From Desulfatiglandales bacterium (GTDB taxonomy: Bacteria > Desulfobacterota > DSM-4660 > Desulfatiglandales > Desulfatiglandaceae), in the NCBI GenBank assembly GCA_963666345.1, contig OY762721.1, positions 2,112,001 through 2,176,000 on the forward strand: 64,000 nt of DNA, in the 5' to 3' direction. Made by a program: the position numbers. Positions 39,001 through 54,000 of the stretch are shown piece by piece (within the stretch, counting starts at the first letter, position 1; each line of letters begins with the position of its first letter).

Positions 39001-42000
39001 TTTTTCAGGTTCTTTCTTAGGCTCTGCTTTCTTCTTAGGCTCGGCCTTTACTTCCTTTTTCTCTGCCTTTGGAGCCGCCTTTTTTTCAGCCTTTGCCTCC
39101 TTTTTGGCCTCTTCAAACTCAAGCACAGGCTCAGGCGAGACAGCCAGAAGGTCTATTTCCACTTGCTCCATGTTCTTTGAAATGCCGGCAACGCCGGTGG
39201 CCATTCCCCCGTTTATCATCAGTTCGATGAACGAACGCGTCAGCCTGACCGTTTCAGGATGTCTCAAAATGACTACGTCTGATCCACCAAGAAGATATGC
39301 CGTCGCTGCCGTCGCCTCCATAAGTATTGGGCGTCTTTCGGCATCCCCGAGCGTGGGGGCGTCCTGTTCGGACTGACCGGCTTCTTTGCACTTCCAAACC
39401 TCGTTTCCTACATTATTTATCATAGGTATCTGGAGTTTATCGTCTTCCTGAGTCAAAGCGGCCATTCTGATACGTTCCATTACCGAGTAGCTGTATTCCA
39501 TTCCGTATCCGAGGCCACCCGTGGTAGGATCTATGAGGATTTTCTCCTGCTTTACACCTAGATTTCCGAGAAGTATATTCAACTGTTTGGCTAGATTCAC
39601 GTCTATGGGGGAGCTTGCCACAATAACATGCCCGTAACCAAGTGCACTAGCCCCTATCCCCTTGTGATTGGCTTCCTCTACCGGTCCTAAACCGACATTC
39701 ATTCCCTCACACAATTCAGAAATCTTCTTTAGGACATCTTCATCTTTCTGATTATTTGCGGTTCCCCATACCACCAGGGGTACGTCAACGGCGTCTGCAA
39801 CCTCTTTTGCCGTTTTCGCCGCCTCCTCCGCACTTTTATCCATACCGTTCGGATCCGTACCCTTCAACTGCAGAACTATAAGATCCGCGCCATATTCCTC
39901 CACACACTTTTTCGCCCATTCTGAGGGGGAGGAAATAACATCCTTAAACGGCTCTATGGCAGCTTGAGGCCATTCCTGTGAAGGATCATAGTCCCAAATC
40001 TCCATGGCTATTTTAGGCGGATTTGGTGAAGACCCCTCAAAAAGATGAAACGCATAGGAGTCTGATCCTCCGACCGTAACCGCGGCACTTCCGCTTCCGA
40101 CCGTAGTAGTCCCTATTTTTCCTGAATAGGGTTGTTTCGGGATTTCAAAGGCCAATTTCATTACCTCCTTTTTATGAATTTAACCGTGAGATTGAAAAAG
40201 ATTTTCCTGTCGGTTCTCAAAATTTTAGAATACATAAACCGGCGTACTTCAAAAAAACAGGTTTTAATAAAAACCCCGCCCTCTTCTCTTTCAAACACGC
40301 AAAGACTCCGAGTTCAACCGGAAAAGACTTTAGAGGTTATCCTTGAACTTCACTTTTAAAGATATTCGATATCAGCAGCCGGCTACCGGCAAAAGAGATA
40401 AAGACTTCTTGCTCTGAAACCTTAAGAAGACGACCACCGCATCCAAAACTCTTCCTTTTTCGGATGGACGCTGCTTAAAATATGATTCAAAAGATCATAT
40501 CAAGGTAAAGGATTCCTTAAAAACAGGGATCTAAAAAGCTTATATAAAGACAGACGCACGACTGTTTATCAACTTAAAAATAAATAAAATATAGGAAACG
40601 GTATTATTTGATTTGCTAAAAAGAGGAAAGATCGGTTTAAGAGATTTTATTGCGAAGACCATAAGATTTAAACCTTTTAGCACTTATACCTCCTATCGTG
40701 GGTAGCCCCTCGATCGGGGTAACTGGTTTTAATATGTTCACTGCATCCATCTCCCTCGCTCTCGACAAAATTCTGAAAGGAGTTTCAGGAGCTCTCTAAG
40801 GTAGACTTAAAAATGATAAACTAAATGGCCGCCTTTTTCCGTCAGGTAACATAAAAAAAAGGGCAAATTATTGTCAAGTAAATTCTAAAGTAATTTCAGG
40901 CAGTTTAAATTAGTTTATTCCTATATATTGTATTAAATACTATTTTATGTACAAGATATAGATATTAACGTCCAAGTATACCACGAAAAATAGAGTTCGC
41001 GGCAACAACCGCTGTGCTTTTTTCTCCCAACTGAGAGGTAGGTTTTCCCTCGAGATCATAATCGAAAACTACCGGGTCCTCAGGAATAATTCCCATCAAC
41101 TCTAAATTATATTTTTTTACCGCCTCTTCTATACGTGCCCTCTCCCCATCTTTTACCCTGTTTACGATCAAGGACTTACGTATGATATTAAGCTTCAGCT
41201 CCTCGGTCAACTCAACAATACGAGCCGCCGCCTGGATTCCCCTGATTGATGAGTCGGACACCACAATCAGATCATCGATATTGTCAGTCGTTAATCTACT
41301 GATATGTTCCATTCCCGCCTCATTATCCGTTACTACCATCTCATAATTCTTGATTAATTTCTCCAGATACATAGTAAGTAATGAATTTGCGGCACAATAG
41401 CAACCGGCGCCCTCCGGCCTTCCCATGACGATCAGGTCAAAACCGCTCGATTCGATCACCGCCTCCTGTAATTTCATTTCCATAAACACGTCTTTAGTCA
41501 TTCCGCTGGAAACACCCTTCTTCATCTCCTCCCTGGCATCGCCCAAGGTTTCACTGATCTCCAGGCCCAGCACCTCGTTAAGATTTGAATTTGCATCCGC
41601 ATCAACTGCCAAAACGGGTGTTCTACCTTCAGAAACCAGATACCTTATCAAAAAACCGGCCACAGTTGTTTTACCCGTTCCCCCCTTGCCGGCCAAGGCT
41701 ATAGAATAGCTCATTTTCTCCTCCTGAACATATAGATTTTGGTTGCTATTTTTAAAGAATTTTTCTAGAATTTAAAGAACTTAAAACATTTCAGGGCTTA
41801 ACATATACACAACAATTATGCCAACAAAGAATGATACATGGAAGATCATAACTAAACAGTTAAAGCGAGAGATTCCTCAATCGGAATTCAACACCTGGTT
41901 TTCCAACACAAGCATAAAAGAACTGGACACAAGCCTGGTTGTAATAGAAGTCCCGAATAAATTTGTCGCCAGATGGCTTAACGACCATTACCTTATTAAA

Positions 42001-51000: not shown

Positions 51001-54000
51001 TATTAGCTTCGATTAGTTCTGAAGCGTATAACACAGTGGAATGACTGCGATTAATAGTTGCGCCTATTTCTTCAAGGGTCTCGTCCGTATACCTTCTGGA
51101 TAGGTAGGCACAGATATTTCTCGGTAATACGTATATCTTTTTGCGGGATTTGGAGCTGACCATTTCAGGGTCAATGTTGTAGTATTTTGAAACCAGCTGT
51201 TTGACATCCTGGCTGGATATAGAGGCCTCTGAAGTTACCAGGCAGTCTACGACTTCCTTGGCAAGGTCGAGATCTATTTTTACATTAAGAAGGGCGGATT
51301 TGGCACTGAGGGAATTAAGGGCACTTTCCATTTGGCGGACATCCCTTGTAAGTCTGCCGGCAATGAAGTGGATTATCTCGTCGGCGAGATTCAGGTTCTT
51401 TTCAAAGGCCTTTTCAGATAATATCTTTACCCTTGTTTCATAATCGGGGTTATCTATGGTGCTGACCAGGCCGCATGTAAGCCTTGATGAGAGCTCTTTT
51501 GACATGCGGGGGATATCCTTTGGGGGAAGAGAACTGGTGAAGATTAATTTTTTATTGTCATTGCAAAGGGCATCAAGGGTATATCCCAGTTCCACCTGAG
51601 TTTTTTCTTTTCCGCTCAGAAAATGGATCTCTTCCAAAAGCAGTACATCACAGGAACGCCGATACCTGTTTTTGAATTCATCGATGCGGTTGTTTCTGAT
51701 AGAAGAAATCATTTCGTTGGTGAAATCCTCTGCAGTTATGTAGAAAACCTTGGCCTTTGGGTTGATGTGCATGATTTTGTTACCCACGGCCTGAGAAAGA
51801 TGGGTCTTCCCCAGTCCGGTTTTGGCCAGCATTAGCAGGGTATTGTAATGCCGGGATTGGCTGCGGGCAAGCTCCTGGGAGGCTGAATAGGCGAATTCAT
51901 TTGACGGTCCGACTATAAATCGGTCAAAGGTGAAGCCCTTGTTGAAGAATTTGAAGCTGGAGCCTGAAGTCTTAAAATTGGGGAGAGTAAGTTGCTTTGG
52001 GCCTTTGGAGTCGGAAGGGTTGGGATTTGATTTGATTTTACGATCTACATCGAAGCACAGATCCAAATGTCGATTGGTTGTGGAATTTAATTTATCCAGG
52101 ATAAGTTCATAATAATTCTGCTTGACCCAGTTGCAGGAAAATTTATTCGGAAATCCAAGAGTTAATGTATTGCCGTCATTAGATACAAAAGATATCGGTC
52201 GTATCCAGAGTGAGAAGGTGTTTTTCGGGATTTCATTGCTAAGCTGGTTCTTTATCTCCTCCCAACAGACCTTCATCTATTTCTCCCGGTTTTTAACAGA
52301 ATTAACGTTTATGTTGAAAAGTGAATTGAAATGAATCAAACAGGATGTTAATCGTATTTATACGAATGGGTGTTTAGATGTCAAAGCTCGTTGATGAGAG
52401 GCAAAAGTTATGTGAGATACTCTTTTTGACATAAGGTAACGTATTCGGCTCACAAGGGAAATCGGCAGTGTCGGTGTAAGTCACCGAGAAGGTGACGTTT
52501 TTTAGAATATAAAATTGGACCAAAAAACAATTACTTAAGCAAAAGAGCTGCGTTGTTTAAAAAAATATCCACATTGGAGATCATTAAAATACTACGATTT
52601 ACGCAGTTTTTTAATGATATTCATTTTCTTATAGGGGATATTTTGGATAATAAAATGATAGTGATATATGGTGAAAGTTAGGAAAGAAAATTGCATGAGC
52701 TGTAACTTATTTATATTGCAAGGTAAAAATAGAATAAAAAGAGCCTGCTGCCGGAGGTTAACTCTATTTTAAAAATTATATTAAAAAACAAAGAGGTGCA
52801 TTTTCTGTAAATGGGGGAAAATTGCTGATGAACAAGAAAAGGATAGTTGTAATTGCGGGAGGTTGGTCTAAAGAAAGGGAGATTTCTCTTGATAGCGGTA
52901 GGGCTGTGTACGATGCCATCGATAGAAATCGTTACGATGTAATGATGTGCGACCCGTTGAATGGGCTTGAAAGGATAATGGAAGGTAGGGATTCCATTGG
53001 ACTTGCCTTTGTGTTGCTTCATGGGCGGAGCGGTGAGGACGGATCGATGCAAGGGTTTCTTGAGACTTTGGGGATTCCCTACGTCGGGTCGGGGGTTCTT
53101 GCAAGTGCGATGGCAATGAACAAACATAAGGCAAAACAGATATTCAGGGCTAACGATATTAAGGTCGCCGATGACATTTTAGTGAGAAAAGATGAACAGG
53201 TAACTGCTTGTAATATATTTAAAATGCTTGGTGAAACGGTCGTAACAAAGCCCGTAACTGAAGGATCAAGCATCGGCATGTCTATCTGTAGAAGCGAAGA
53301 AGAGTTTGACAGGGGATTTGAGATGGCCGCGGGACACGGAAGTGAGGTTATGATCGAATCGTACATAAAGGGAAGAGAGGTGACATGCTGTATCCTTGGA
53401 AATTCAAAACTTGAAGCCCTGCCTATAGTGGAGATTGCACCTGGAGAAGGGCACCTCTTCTTTGACTACGAGGCAAAATACACCAGCGGAGTCGCGGCGG
53501 AAATCTGCCCGGCCCGGATTGATGAAAAAATTGCTGAAGGGGTGAAAAAAATTGCTCGAAAAGCTCATGTAGCGCTTTGCTGCAAGGTGTGGAGCAGGAC
53601 AGACATGATTATTAGGGGAGATGATATTTTTGTGCTTGAGACAAATACGATCCCTGGAATGACTACCAACAGCCTGTTTCCGCTCGCTGCTAGAACGGGG
53701 GGTGTGCCATTTCCTCAACTCGTTGAAATACTTATTGAATTATCAATAGAATAAGTGGGGTGTTTGGCCGAAGAATAGTGCCCCATGCCGTATGCTTCCG
53801 TGATGTTTTTTTCTGCCGGGCGGTGTGAAGAAAACGGGATGTTTCACGTGAAACATTGTTTTGCCTTTTCAAAGCATAAGTATTGTGCTATCAACTTCTC
53901 AAACTGCCGGATCGAATAAAGCATGGTCGCTCCGGTCAAAGGCGGGTAAGGCTTTGCCCTTTAACGGTTTGCAATCATGGAGTGTCCTTTTTATGTATGC

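Follow-up and report, generated by a model that had tools for sequence, protein, structure and literature searches.

Two divergent dnaA genes flank the dnaN-gyrB-gyrA-gpsA block at the GC-skew minimum of a Desulfatiglandales chromosome

The chromosome of a Desulfatiglandales bacterium carries two full-length dnaA genes, dnaA1 (g01884) and dnaA2 (g01890), on either side of dnaN-gyrB-gyrA-gpsA. ORFs, Pfam domains and alignment agree with a preliminary description of this pair, whose products are 28% identical over 432 aa. We read the genes as an old pair of initiator paralogues, with oriC in the dnaA1-dnaN spacer, DnaA2 as main initiator, DnaA1 as auxiliary and no imported module, a composite reading that we hold to be about evenly poised between right and wrong. 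Distribution, synteny, gene content, composition, motif states and selection are shown by the comparisons below; from these we infer in which direction the history ran, where oriC lies and how the two proteins share the work. The pair recurs stably across a large clade that spans two families, and in the trees neither gene is a recent duplicate of the other.

Gene layout and the candidate origin

The window analyzed is a stretch of 64,000 nucleotides (contig OY762721.1, positions 2,112,001 to 2,176,000), with the following features around the two genes.

38575..40161, minus strand: cdhD, CO dehydrogenase/acetyl-CoA synthase delta subunit (Pfam CdhD, 1.5e-43); conserved left neighbour of the block
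40965..41714, minus strand: cooC-like P-loop ATPase of CbiA/NifH type (Pfam CbiA, 6e-16); divergent from dnaA1
41818..43119, plus strand: dnaA1 (g01884), 433 aa; dnaN-linked DnaA paralogue
43120..43503, intergenic: dnaA1-dnaN spacer; candidate oriC unwinding region and dnaN promoter
43504..44619, plus strand: dnaN, beta clamp, with three DNA_pol3_beta domains
44650..47082, plus strand: gyrB (Pfam DNA_gyraseB, Toprim, HATPase_c)
47095..49533, plus strand: gyrA (Pfam DNA_topoisoIV, 2e-167)
49559..50578, plus strand: gpsA (Pfam NAD_Gly3P_dh); ends the conserved dnaN-gyrB-gyrA-gpsA run
50649..50840, plus strand: ORF of 63 aa, convergent with dnaA2 and conserved in relatives
50930..52276, minus strand: dnaA2 (g01890), 448 aa; Y-type DnaA
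52277..52821, intergenic: spacer between dnaA2 and ddl; holds the dnaA2 promoter region and a single DnaA-box-like site
52822..55706, plus strand: ddl, parA and parB (Pfam); conserved right neighbours of dnaA2

The 63-aa ORF matched no Pfam family and is 39-53% identical to its counterparts at the equivalent place in 20 relatives' loci; the order parB-parA-ddl<>dnaA2 recurs in many relatives. A Pfam search detected no mobile-element genes between 38 and 56 kb of the window. Throughout the 4.16-Mb single-contig genome, dnaA1 and dnaA2 are the only full DnaA matches, the remaining 16 matches to PF00308 being 15 identical IstB-like ATPases and one fragment. Below, A1 and A2 denote the DnaA1 and DnaA2 types, Y-type the clade that holds DnaA2, and X-type the dnaN-linked loci of single-DnaA genomes; f1 is the family of this genome, f4 a second family of its order and f18 a family of another class.

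The pair had been placed at the GC-skew origin, and the cumulative skew minimum indeed falls at contig position 2,155,000 (window 43,000), at the dnaA1/dnaN junction. Between 36 and 58 kb of the window, the 120 nt of lowest G+C (43360-43479; 0.192, a value reached by 0.02% of genome windows) lie inside the dnaA1-dnaN spacer; this spacer and the dnaA2-ddl spacer each have a G+C of 0.32, with minima of 0.19 and 0.24, respectively. Other bacteria have oriC in dnaA-dnaN spacers, and here too oriC probably lies in the very AT-rich dnaA1-dnaN spacer. Part of the conservation of this spacer could be accounted for by the dnaN promoter alone: a promoter-like element, TCAACA-17-TATATT, is present at 43416-43444 and is kept in kin both with and without dnaA1. 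No conserved DnaA-box motif was found among 37 orthologous dnaA1-dnaN spacers, nor any TTWTNCACA cluster marking an origin, the genome-wide maximum being 3 per 600 bp; a single such box is present between 36 and 58 kb of the window. In the closed genome G193, of f18, the skew continues downward across the Y-type gene at 0.35 kb and reverses at 205-260 kb, beside a dnaN-linked dnaA at 273 kb; the skew samples of G073 and G179 carried too much noise to be of use.

As a separate observation, the gene at the skew switch is that of DnaA1 and not DnaA2, which is equally compatible with DnaA1 as the working initiator.

The length and AT-richness of both spacers would also fit two origins about 9 kb apart, each with its own initiator (oriC-1 at dnaA1-dnaN, oriC-2 at dnaA2-ddl). 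An inverted DnaA-box pair about 280 nt upstream of dnaA2 is conserved in many f1 relatives, and in G073 the dnaA1 and dnaA2 loci lie 940 kb apart, so each locus can exist away from the other. However, the skew stays strongly positive beyond 43 kb, and a fork starting at 52.5 kb would meet dnaN-gyrB-gyrA-gpsA head-on. Two boxes, moreover, suit autoregulation better than an origin, and only one half of the pair survives in this window, where the dnaA2-ddl spacer has a DnaA-box-like site with one mismatch at 52565-52573. Upstream of dnaA2, 68 of 78 regions compared keep a TTGACA-type element. On this evidence we consider two origins very unlikely.

Base composition, synteny and descent

The reported AT-richness of dnaA1-dnaN-gyrB was confirmed: the stretch has a G+C of 0.368 against a genome mean of 0.480, and 26 of 8314 equal-length genome windows are as low (lowest 0.3%). 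By gene, G+C is 0.37 for dnaA1, 0.37 for dnaN, 0.38 for gyrB, and 0.43 for both gyrA and dnaA2, with neighbouring genes at 0.46-0.49. Low G+C recurs in all 32 relatives' loci that have both dnaA1 and cooC, and is still present in L014 and L031, which lack dnaA1 and have a dnaN G+C of 0.30. Among 20 single-DnaA genomes of other classes, the mean departure from the flanks is -0.026 for dnaA and -0.038 for dnaN, and no drop was seen at solitary Y-type dnaA genes. The departure persists among lineages diverged to 40-50% identity and follows each genome's own G+C. Locally low G+C is an enduring feature of the origin-proximal locus that holds dnaA1, dnaN and gyrB; it is seen across the phylum's dnaA-dnaN loci with or without dnaA1 and is therefore no relic of transfer. 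The preliminary description had itself raised, as a caveat, that the low G+C might reflect selection near the origin rather than transfer.

In 20 of 20 X-type loci, from 20 other families in other classes of the phylum, dnaN directly follows dnaA; dnaA ahead of dnaN is the ancestral arrangement in the phylum. The extended context cdhD-cooC<>dnaA-dnaN is present in this window, in 4 of 4 f4 loci, in G193 and in each of 3 more f18 genomes (dnaN being visible in two of these, as one contig ends), and in none of the 20 X-type loci. The f18 genomes additionally carry a Y-type copy. As a neighbour of dnaA-dnaN, cdhD occurs in loci of f1, f4 and f18 alike. By comparison, dnaA2 is solitary, divergent from ddl and not adjoining dnaN, and dnaN was beside a Y-type dnaA at 0 of 19 loci, four of which have one flank limited to 1-3 kb.

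The preliminary description was right that an A1-type DnaA is present in the family but understated its spread: with a threshold of E <= 1e-90, matches were found in at least 58 of 101 f1 genomes and 39 of 48 f4 genomes, absences being soft because most genomes are incomplete bins and some near-complete ones (G040, 99%; G028, 98%) show one type only. No A1-type match was found in f2 (0/17), f3 (0/1), f6 (0/5) or f5 (0/3). The closed genomes G179 and G180 have the DnaA2 type only and retain dnaN-gyrB without dnaA1, G179 with the full dnaN-gyrB-gyrA-gpsA run; their dnaN products are 54-55% identical to that of this genome, and dnaN identity declines smoothly with kinship. Between dnaN and cooC, L014 keeps a 24-codon relic of dnaA1. 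The Y type is the sole DnaA in many related lineages, and none of the lineages searched lacked it throughout. DnaA2 identity is 54-64% within the family, 47-52% to the order's other families and 42-44% to Desulfobacterales; vertical inheritance of this DnaA type in the order bears out that part of the earlier view, in which g01890 was the order's ancestral initiator. Together, the relatives suggest that the dnaN-linked copy is the old one and that many related lineages have lost it.

In phylogenetic trees, Y and A2 form one clade (SH-aLRT 100 and 99), and A1 forms another (SH-aLRT 100) outside it; the stem of A1 is long (0.75) and arises among generic, unlabelled DnaAs where the backbone is not resolved. 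A tree constrained to join A1 with the f18 dnaN-linked copy was not rejected (p-AU 0.91), its score exceeding that of the quick free tree by 40 lnL units. Without the constraint, A1 and the f18 copy did not come out as neighbours, and the case for vertical descent therefore rests on synteny.

The long isolated branch of A1, which no tree joins with support to the phylum's DnaAs, and the mere 33-38% identity of DnaA1 to its best outside matches would suit another origin, as would the extreme G+C of the stretch: dnaA1, alone or with dnaN-gyrB, may have come from an AT-rich foreign donor into the ancestor of f1 and f4. The low G+C, however, is shared with dnaA1-less and single-DnaA loci, endures through deep divergence and tracks the host. 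Kin without dnaA1 share dnaN-gyrB-gyrA-gpsA, the cdhD-cooC<>dnaA-dnaN context extends to f18 in another class, and the grouping of A1 with the f18 copy is not rejected by the tree test. We consider a foreign donor unlikely. Neither protein matches nor trees revealed a donor clade for A1. The preliminary description had proposed dnaA1-dnaN-gyrB as a module from an AT-rich donor, acquired in the family ancestor; the first part is not supported, given the lasting low G+C and the dnaA1-less kin that keep dnaN-gyrB, nor is the second, given the occurrence of the trait in both f1 and f4. A horizontally acquired island is likewise not supported, as the compositional departure is not lineage-specific and the gene trees show no donor. 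A foreign dnaA swapped in situ for the resident copy would give an identical picture.

The two DnaA proteins and their possible roles

Both proteins carry DnaA_N, Bac_DnaA (AAA+) and Bac_DnaA_C above the Pfam cut-offs (61, 146 and 94 bits in DnaA1; 59, 174 and 71 bits in DnaA2), and both match B. subtilis DnaA (8btg) over its full length (9e-81 and 3e-88, respectively). DnaA1 combines a canonical DNA-binding signature with altered nucleotide-sensing residues, and DnaA2 appears to have the reverse pattern; the residue names at the motif positions are those of the E. coli and B. subtilis literature. The DnaA1 P-loop, SKLSLGKT, has lost two glycines of the canonical GxxGxGKT, and Lys replaces Asp in sensor I and Arg in sensor II, while Walker B keeps its DD and the Arg finger its RSR; these pocket states are clade-wide. 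Compared with the canonical domain IV signature (PRQIAMYL ... G-KDH[ST]T), DnaA1 has PRQIAVYL ... FGNKDHSTIIYA, matching the generic consensus of 90 representatives.

In DnaA2, the P-loop AKTGLGKT fits [AG]xxxxGK[ST], and sensor II Arg and the Arg finger are retained; Walker B is EE instead of DD, and sensor I has Ser for Asp. Where a Y-type protein is the only DnaA of a lineage it has the same pocket states, so they are compatible with function there. Its domain IV (PRNICAYL ... I-NRSHSTV) departs from the canonical signature by Asn for Gln, a one-residue deletion and Ser for Asp, changes common to the Y clade, and at this spot resembles T. maritima DnaA (2z4r, F-NRSH). The derived Y-type states (Walker B EE, loss of the sensor I Asp, the deletion and the Asn/Ser substitutions) are absent from A1.

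Both genes are under purifying selection, with dN/dS in genome pairs of 0.11-0.24 for dnaA1 and 0.09-0.11 for dnaA2. In the same pairs of genomes, dN was about twice as high for dnaA1 as for dnaA2 (0.090 versus 0.046; 0.265 versus 0.127), and omega in the unsaturated pair was 0.24 versus 0.11.

In the simplest view, DnaA1 would have descended from the canonical dnaN-linked dnaA, kept in its ancestral place before dnaN-gyrB and evolving fast, and DnaA2 would be a member of the distinct Y-type lineage, standing alone in the chromosome. DnaA2 may be the principal ATP-switched initiator, because its type is sufficient alone in kin and it evolves under the tighter constraint. DnaA1 is predicted to bind canonical DnaA-box-like DNA via its intact domain IV, with a remodelled nucleotide pocket, and may assist as an auxiliary factor, either at the origin or at the dnaN operon, dispensable over evolutionary time.

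A further reading, which we consider less likely than not, is an initiator turnover caught midway, in which a derived Y-type DnaA displaced an ancestral dnaN-linked DnaA that is decaying at different speeds. The Y-type DnaA, with Walker B EE and a remodelled DNA-reading signature, would have arisen in an ancestor shared by much of the phylum; the dnaN-linked copy would have stayed canonical in f18, been remodelled in f1 and f4, become extremely divergent in f69, shrunk to the relic in L014 and gone from f2 and Desulfobacterales. In this genome, DnaA1 might then be a box-bound, nucleotide-insensitive scaffold and DnaA2 its ATP-switched partner, acting jointly on one origin.

Conversely, DnaA1 may still be the working initiator at the dnaA1-dnaN origin, with DnaA2 a regulator, transcription factor or back-up here that became sole initiator only where DnaA1 was lost. 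The skew switch and the lowest-G+C segment at dnaA1-dnaN agree with this, as do the G193 switch beside the dnaN-linked rather than the Y-type copy and the retention in DnaA1, under purifying selection, of the canonical domain IV signature and arginine finger. Its altered P-loop and sensors speak against it, however, as do its twofold faster evolution, its repeated loss, set against a Y type that no lineage searched lacks throughout, and the lack of a canonical box cluster in the 37 orthologous spacers. We find this assignment rather doubtful.

Comparison with known systems

The canonical dnaA-dnaN(-recF)-gyrB locus of the Bacillus subtilis type shares with the present one domains I, III and IV, found in both proteins, and a dnaA (here dnaA1, in the canonical position adjoining dnaN) that heads dnaN-gyrB, together with an AT-rich spacer where the skew is lowest. 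It differs in that two copies are present here, neither with the full canonical motif set, and in the TTWTNCACA cluster, which this locus lacks. Hda/HdaA is a DnaA-derived AAA+ protein that modulates initiation without initiating, and is not known to have domains I and IV. DnaA2 has a weak Hda_lid match (2e-6), and DnaA1 matches Hda PDB chains of 225-242 residues, about half the length of DnaA, at 9e-12; unlike Hda, both DnaAs here are full length with a DNA-binding domain.

Some archaeal genomes have several Orc1/Cdc6 initiators, each linked to its own origin (PMC3936714, PMC3607249). As here, paralogous initiators are encoded beside origins, but the likeness is one of analogy, with a different protein family and several origins.

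Several full-length DnaA-like genes per genome are also known from Chlamydiae, which have DnaA1 and DnaA2, with DnaA3 in Waddlia; a study of them treats them as bifunctional paralogues, initiator and transcription factor, and could not call targets for DnaA1 or DnaA3 (PMC4989314). The phylum is a different one, and the likeness is drawn from description, not from sequence. A preprint remarks in passing, without analysis, that two complete dnaA genes occasionally occur in one genome, with Desulfovibrionia and Chlamydiales as examples (10.1101/2025.08.05.668638), a resemblance again by description. That remark does not include the Desulfatiglandales-type order and f18, or the pattern of Y-type versus dnaN-linked copies. 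A family keeping two initiator paralogues had been put forward as new; genomes with two complete dnaA genes are already in print.

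Two dnaA genes at the skew minimum

The preliminary description of two full-length dnaA genes at the GC-skew origin of this single-contig genome (4.16 Mb, G+C 0.480; window G000:C1:2112001-2176000) was confirmed. The proteins encoded by the dnaN-linked dnaA1 and the solitary dnaA2 share 28% identity over 432 residues, and each matches B. subtilis DnaA (8btg) over its full length (DnaA1, 9e-81; DnaA2, 3e-88). The genome contains no third DnaA, the remaining PF00308 matches being 15 identical IstB-like ATPases and one fragment. Since the fifteen IstB/IS21-type copies, all outside the window (e.g. 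C1:413527-413826), are identical, an IS21-family element appears to be abundant in this genome.

Features of the dnaA1-dnaA2 locus (window coordinates)
38575-40161, minus strand: cdhD (ORF and Pfam scan)
40965-41714, minus strand: cooC-like ATPase gene (ORF and Pfam scan)
41818-43119, plus strand: dnaA1, with DnaA_N, Bac_DnaA and Bac_DnaA_C above Pfam cut-offs; 384-nt spacer to dnaN
43504-44619: dnaN
44650-47082: gyrB
47095-49533: gyrA
49559-50578: gpsA
50649-50840, plus strand: 63-codon ORF, convergent with dnaA2
50930-52276, minus strand: dnaA2, with DnaA_N, Bac_DnaA and Bac_DnaA_C above Pfam cut-offs; 545-nt spacer to ddl
52822-53754: ddl
54089-54856: parA
54858-55706: parB

The 63-codon ORF matches no Pfam family and recurs with 39-53% identity in the loci of 20 relatives, each time directly past the 3' end of dnaA2. 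The 803-nt gap between cdhD and cooC (40162-40964) is AT-rich and non-coding (G+C 0.35, lowest 120-nt window 0.217), with no ORF of at least 100 aa and no Rfam match. The sole match of the Rfam scan was a sub-threshold AsdA, an antisense RNA of dnaA mRNA, inside dnaA2 (51749-51833, plus strand; 29.8 bits against a gathering score of 52; E 0.015).

Cumulative GC skew is lowest at window position 43,000 and peaks about 2 Mb from there; the skew itself turns from negative to strongly positive at 43 kb and remains so even through dnaA2 on the minus strand. Between 36 and 58 kb, the 120 nt richest in AT (43360-43479, G+C 0.192, a value matched by only 0.02% of genome windows) belong to the dnaA1-dnaN spacer, where the skew has its minimum. 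From these positions, oriC is predicted to lie in this spacer. Sites within one mismatch of the DnaA box TTATCCACA number 22 in the window against 14.7 expected, a count reached in 4 of 100 shuffles, and no TTWTNCACA cluster occurs anywhere in the genome. Across 37 orthologous dnaA1-dnaN spacers (mean G+C 0.28) no common box-like word was found; de novo k-mers returned just AT-rich words, the ribosome-binding site and a TTGACA-type element. Repeats in the spacers did not exceed chance-like pairs. The sole conserved element is a promoter-like site for dnaN, TTGACA/TCAACA-N17-TAT, also present in relatives without dnaA1. DnaA-trios are not claimed for the spacer, because the candidate TAA-repeat run sits between the -35 and -10 of this predicted promoter and is conserved where dnaA1 is missing. 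Upstream of dnaA2, at about -280, many relatives within the family (f1) have two DnaA boxes in inverted orientation, separated by 11 nt; the window retains one half of this pair (52565-52573).

Among other genomes, the cumulative skew of G193, a closed genome from a family of another class (f18), falls through its Y-type dnaA, the DnaA2-like kind that stands away from dnaN, and turns at 205-260 kb, near a dnaN-linked dnaA at 273 kb. In the dnaA-dnaN spacer there, a TTTTCCACA box without mismatch accompanies an AT-rich island, the genome as a whole having 65% G+C. Skew in G073, an 8.2-Mb closed relative, was weak and of mixed sign (20 samples of 20 kb), too noisy to place an origin; the full 400-kb profile of G179, a closed relative lacking dnaA1, showed much noise and had not stopped falling where the stretch ended, so that no origin was placed there either.

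The AT-richness of dnaA1-gyrB holds (G+C 0.368; only 26 of 8314 equal-length genome windows are as low). The preliminary description had attributed it to a foreign AT-rich donor in the ancestor of the family, an origin that the comparison with relatives does not bear out. The G+C of dnaA1 is below that of cooC in 32 of 32 loci with both genes, a few of these being one genome retrieved twice, and dnaN is usually lower too; values climb from dnaN through gyrB and gyrA to gpsA both in the window and in the majority of loci carrying all four. The same pattern is found without dnaA1 (dnaN G+C 0.30, GC3 0.20 in L014 and L031). Low G+C extends to X-type loci, in which other classes carry a single dnaN-linked dnaA: over 20 such loci, the mean deficit relative to the flanks is 0.026 for dnaA and 0.038 for dnaN. 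Y-type genes that stand alone equal their flanks. A foreign signature would not be kept in parallel by lineages diverged to 40-50% protein identity and follow the G+C of each genome; we take the low G+C to be a local feature of the dnaA-dnaN locus near the origin.

Ancestral position and ancestry of the two copies

Both DnaA proteins were searched against 151 genomes of the phylum. X-type proteins of other classes are about equidistant from the two (~33-38% identity, 240-300 bits), and Y-type proteins share 35-47% with DnaA2 and 24-30% with DnaA1. Among 40 loci retrieved, one per family, dnaN directly follows dnaA in all 20 X-type loci, usually with gyrB next, and adjoins dnaA in none of 19 Y-type loci, a count limited by short flanks in four; ddl is a neighbour in two. 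This contrast makes dnaA before dnaN the ancestral arrangement in the phylum, with DnaA1 in that position.

Both kinds also occur together outside the class. G193 has its Y-type gene at 0.35 kb and its second dnaA in the arrangement cdhD-cooC<>dnaA-dnaN, a context shared by all three further f18 genomes. The dnaN-linked f18 protein has all canonical motifs; its nearest named record, at 57%, is a MAG titled uncultured Desulfarculus sp., and DnaAs from many phyla come next at 36-44%. In G307 (f69; loci L338, G307:C231, and L169, G307:C48), a Y-type dnaA adjoins ddl and an extremely divergent dnaA (end branch 3.4) precedes dnaN-gyrB. Two f18 genomes, G261 and G320 (L328, L329), each have three DnaA matches, one dnaN-linked and two Y-type. 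In f35, f51, f42 and f67 (L330-L337; G210, G243, G217, G303) a dnaN-linked dnaA is accompanied by another DnaA-like gene that stands alone and in some cases lacks domain I or is fused to a longer ORF.

Three trees were built, one with FastTree (119 rows) and two quick IQ-TREE PMSF trees (71 and 88 rows), after thinning that omitted every second or third member per group and representatives outside 425-475 residues. In all three, Y-type proteins and DnaA2 form one clade (support 1.0, 100, 99), DnaA1 of f1 and of f4, a second family of the order, forms another on a long stem (1.0, 100, 100), and DnaA1 falls outside the Y clade. The backbone among DnaA1, the X-type clade, the f18 copies and unlabelled generic DnaAs has no resolved branching order. 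DnaA1 did not group with the f18 copy in the free trees; a tree constrained to that grouping scored 40 lnL units above the quick free tree and was not rejected (p-AU 0.91), a result that is permissive and no proof because both sets of rows are long or compositionally odd. A recent duplication of DnaA2 is ruled out as the source of DnaA1 independently of the trees, since every derived state of the Y clade (Walker B EE, sensor I Asp to Ser, N for Q in domain IV, a one-residue deletion, and S for D) is missing from DnaA1. The observations are consistent with two paralogues of old standing, one linked to dnaN in the ancestral position and one of Y type that stands alone and is the sole DnaA of many relatives.

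Distribution and loss of the pair

A DnaA1-type match (E <= 1e-90, 36-53% identity) was found in at least 58 of 101 f1 genomes, G000 included, most of which also show a second DnaA match at 24-31%. In the surveyed class (one order, six families, 149 genomes at >=85% completeness), f4 has DnaA1-type matches in 39 of 48 genomes, and genome searches returned none in f2 (0/17), f3 (0/1), f5 (0/3) and f6 (0/5). All four f4 loci retrieved show cdhD-cooC<>dnaA1-dnaN-gyrB as in the window. The pair, proposed earlier as a trait of one family, is real in that family and spans two; the feature is wider and older than first described. Relatives found through DnaA2 comprise MAGs of Desulfatiglandales, Desulfatiglandaceae and Candidatus Desulfacyla as well as strain NaphS2, whose record carries no MAG label; in NaphS2, dnaA1 (41%), dnaN and gyrB share one small contig and dnaA2 lies on another. 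A related-locus search with DnaA1 as the lone query returned 0 relatives.

The two genes are not obliged to adjoin, since in G073 (L346, G073:C1:5764001-5776000) cdhD-cooC<>dnaA1-dnaN-gyrB-gyrA-gpsA is intact and dnaA2 lies 940 kb off; in the closed genome G097 the distance between the two is 720 kb. Absence from bins is soft evidence: several near-complete bins show just one DnaA type and one genus mostly neither, which suggests poor binning of the AT-rich origin region. In the two-contig genome G055, dnaA1 was not called a pseudogene; the genome search flagged two stops, tblastn gave one unbroken match, and a frame check was ambiguous. Its gyrB (L345 10082-12484) matched in three pieces, likely through assembly frameshifts.

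The operon persists where DnaA1 is missing. Closed genomes G179 and G180 carry dnaN-gyrB (G179 also gyrA-gpsA) after an acyl-CoA dehydrogenase gene, with dnaN 54-55% identical to that of the window and dnaA2 150-230 kb off; in Desulfoluna limicola, another closed genome with the Y type alone, dnaN is 1.45 Mb from dnaA. The Desulfatiglandaceae MAG locus L014 reads dnaA2-gpsA-gyrA-gyrB-dnaN-cooC-cdhD, and its 576-nt dnaN-cooC gap (18719-19293) retains a correctly oriented 24-codon dnaA1 relic (DnaA1 residues 223-246; E 6e-5 to 8e-5 with the gap as the only search target). Replacement of a resident dnaA in situ by a foreign one is a possibility that we retain beside the old paralogue pair. Joint uptake of dnaN-gyrB with such a gene, as first proposed, is not borne out, given that G179 and G180 keep dnaN-gyrB without dnaA1.

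Proposed division of labour and comparison with known systems

Motifs were compared with the consensus of 90 generic representatives plus 8btg, with residues (P-loop, Walker B, sensors, arginine finger) named and assigned roles after published work on E. coli and B. subtilis DnaA.

Motif states in the DnaA1 clade and in DnaA2 with the Y clade
P-loop: DnaA1 clade, SxxSLGKT replacing GGxGLGKT; DnaA2 and Y clade, S/A-xxGLGK(S/T)
Walker B: DnaA1 clade, DD kept; DnaA2 and Y clade, EE
Sensor I: DnaA1 clade, Asp lost (K in the window); DnaA2 and Y clade, Asp lost (S)
Sensor II: DnaA1 clade, Arg to Lys; DnaA2 and Y clade, Arg kept
Arginine finger: DnaA1 clade, RSR kept; DnaA2 and Y clade, kept
Domain IV: DnaA1 clade, canonical signature kept; DnaA2 and Y clade, PRN...F-NR(S/D)H

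Both genes are under purifying selection. In genome pairs compared for both genes, dnaA1 has about double the dN of dnaA2; in the unsaturated pair omega is 0.24 for dnaA1 against 0.11 for dnaA2, with 0.03-0.09 for dnaN, gyrB and gyrA, and across pairs omega of dnaA1 ranges over 0.12-0.32. DnaA2 would be the main initiator, because it suffices alone in relatives and is the more constrained of the two, and DnaA1 may be an auxiliary DNA-binding paralogue with an altered nucleotide switch that can be lost. The opposite division of labour, with DnaA1 as main initiator, is a serious rival, favoured by the position of the origin beside DnaA1; the sufficiency and stronger constraint of DnaA2 argue for the former assignment.

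DnaA is usually regarded as the single, universal and irreplaceable initiator. A large and abundant group of sediment bacteria, NaphS2 among them, retains two deeply divergent full-length DnaAs, and its relatives form a graded series from both copies canonical to the old copy lost. If this reading is correct, they offer a natural series on how an initiator is replaced without losing the origin, and on which DnaA residues (P-loop glycines, sensor I Asp, Walker B, domain IV signature) may vary with function kept. For annotation, a gene called dnaA and set at position 1 need not mark the origin in this group; the skew switch of G193 lies over 200 kb from it.

Our search of the full-text literature, with subscription journals outside its scope, found no paper on two DnaAs in the Desulfatiglandales-type group. 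Two complete dnaA genes in one genome are mentioned in passing in a preprint as an occasional occurrence, for example in Desulfovibrionia and Chlamydiales (10.1101/2025.08.05.668638), and a study of Waddlia treats its DnaA paralogues as initiators and transcription factors, whose targets it did not resolve (PMC4989314). The pair described here belongs to this known kind, multi-DnaA genomes, to which it would add an evolutionary series of initiator turnover that is potentially important.
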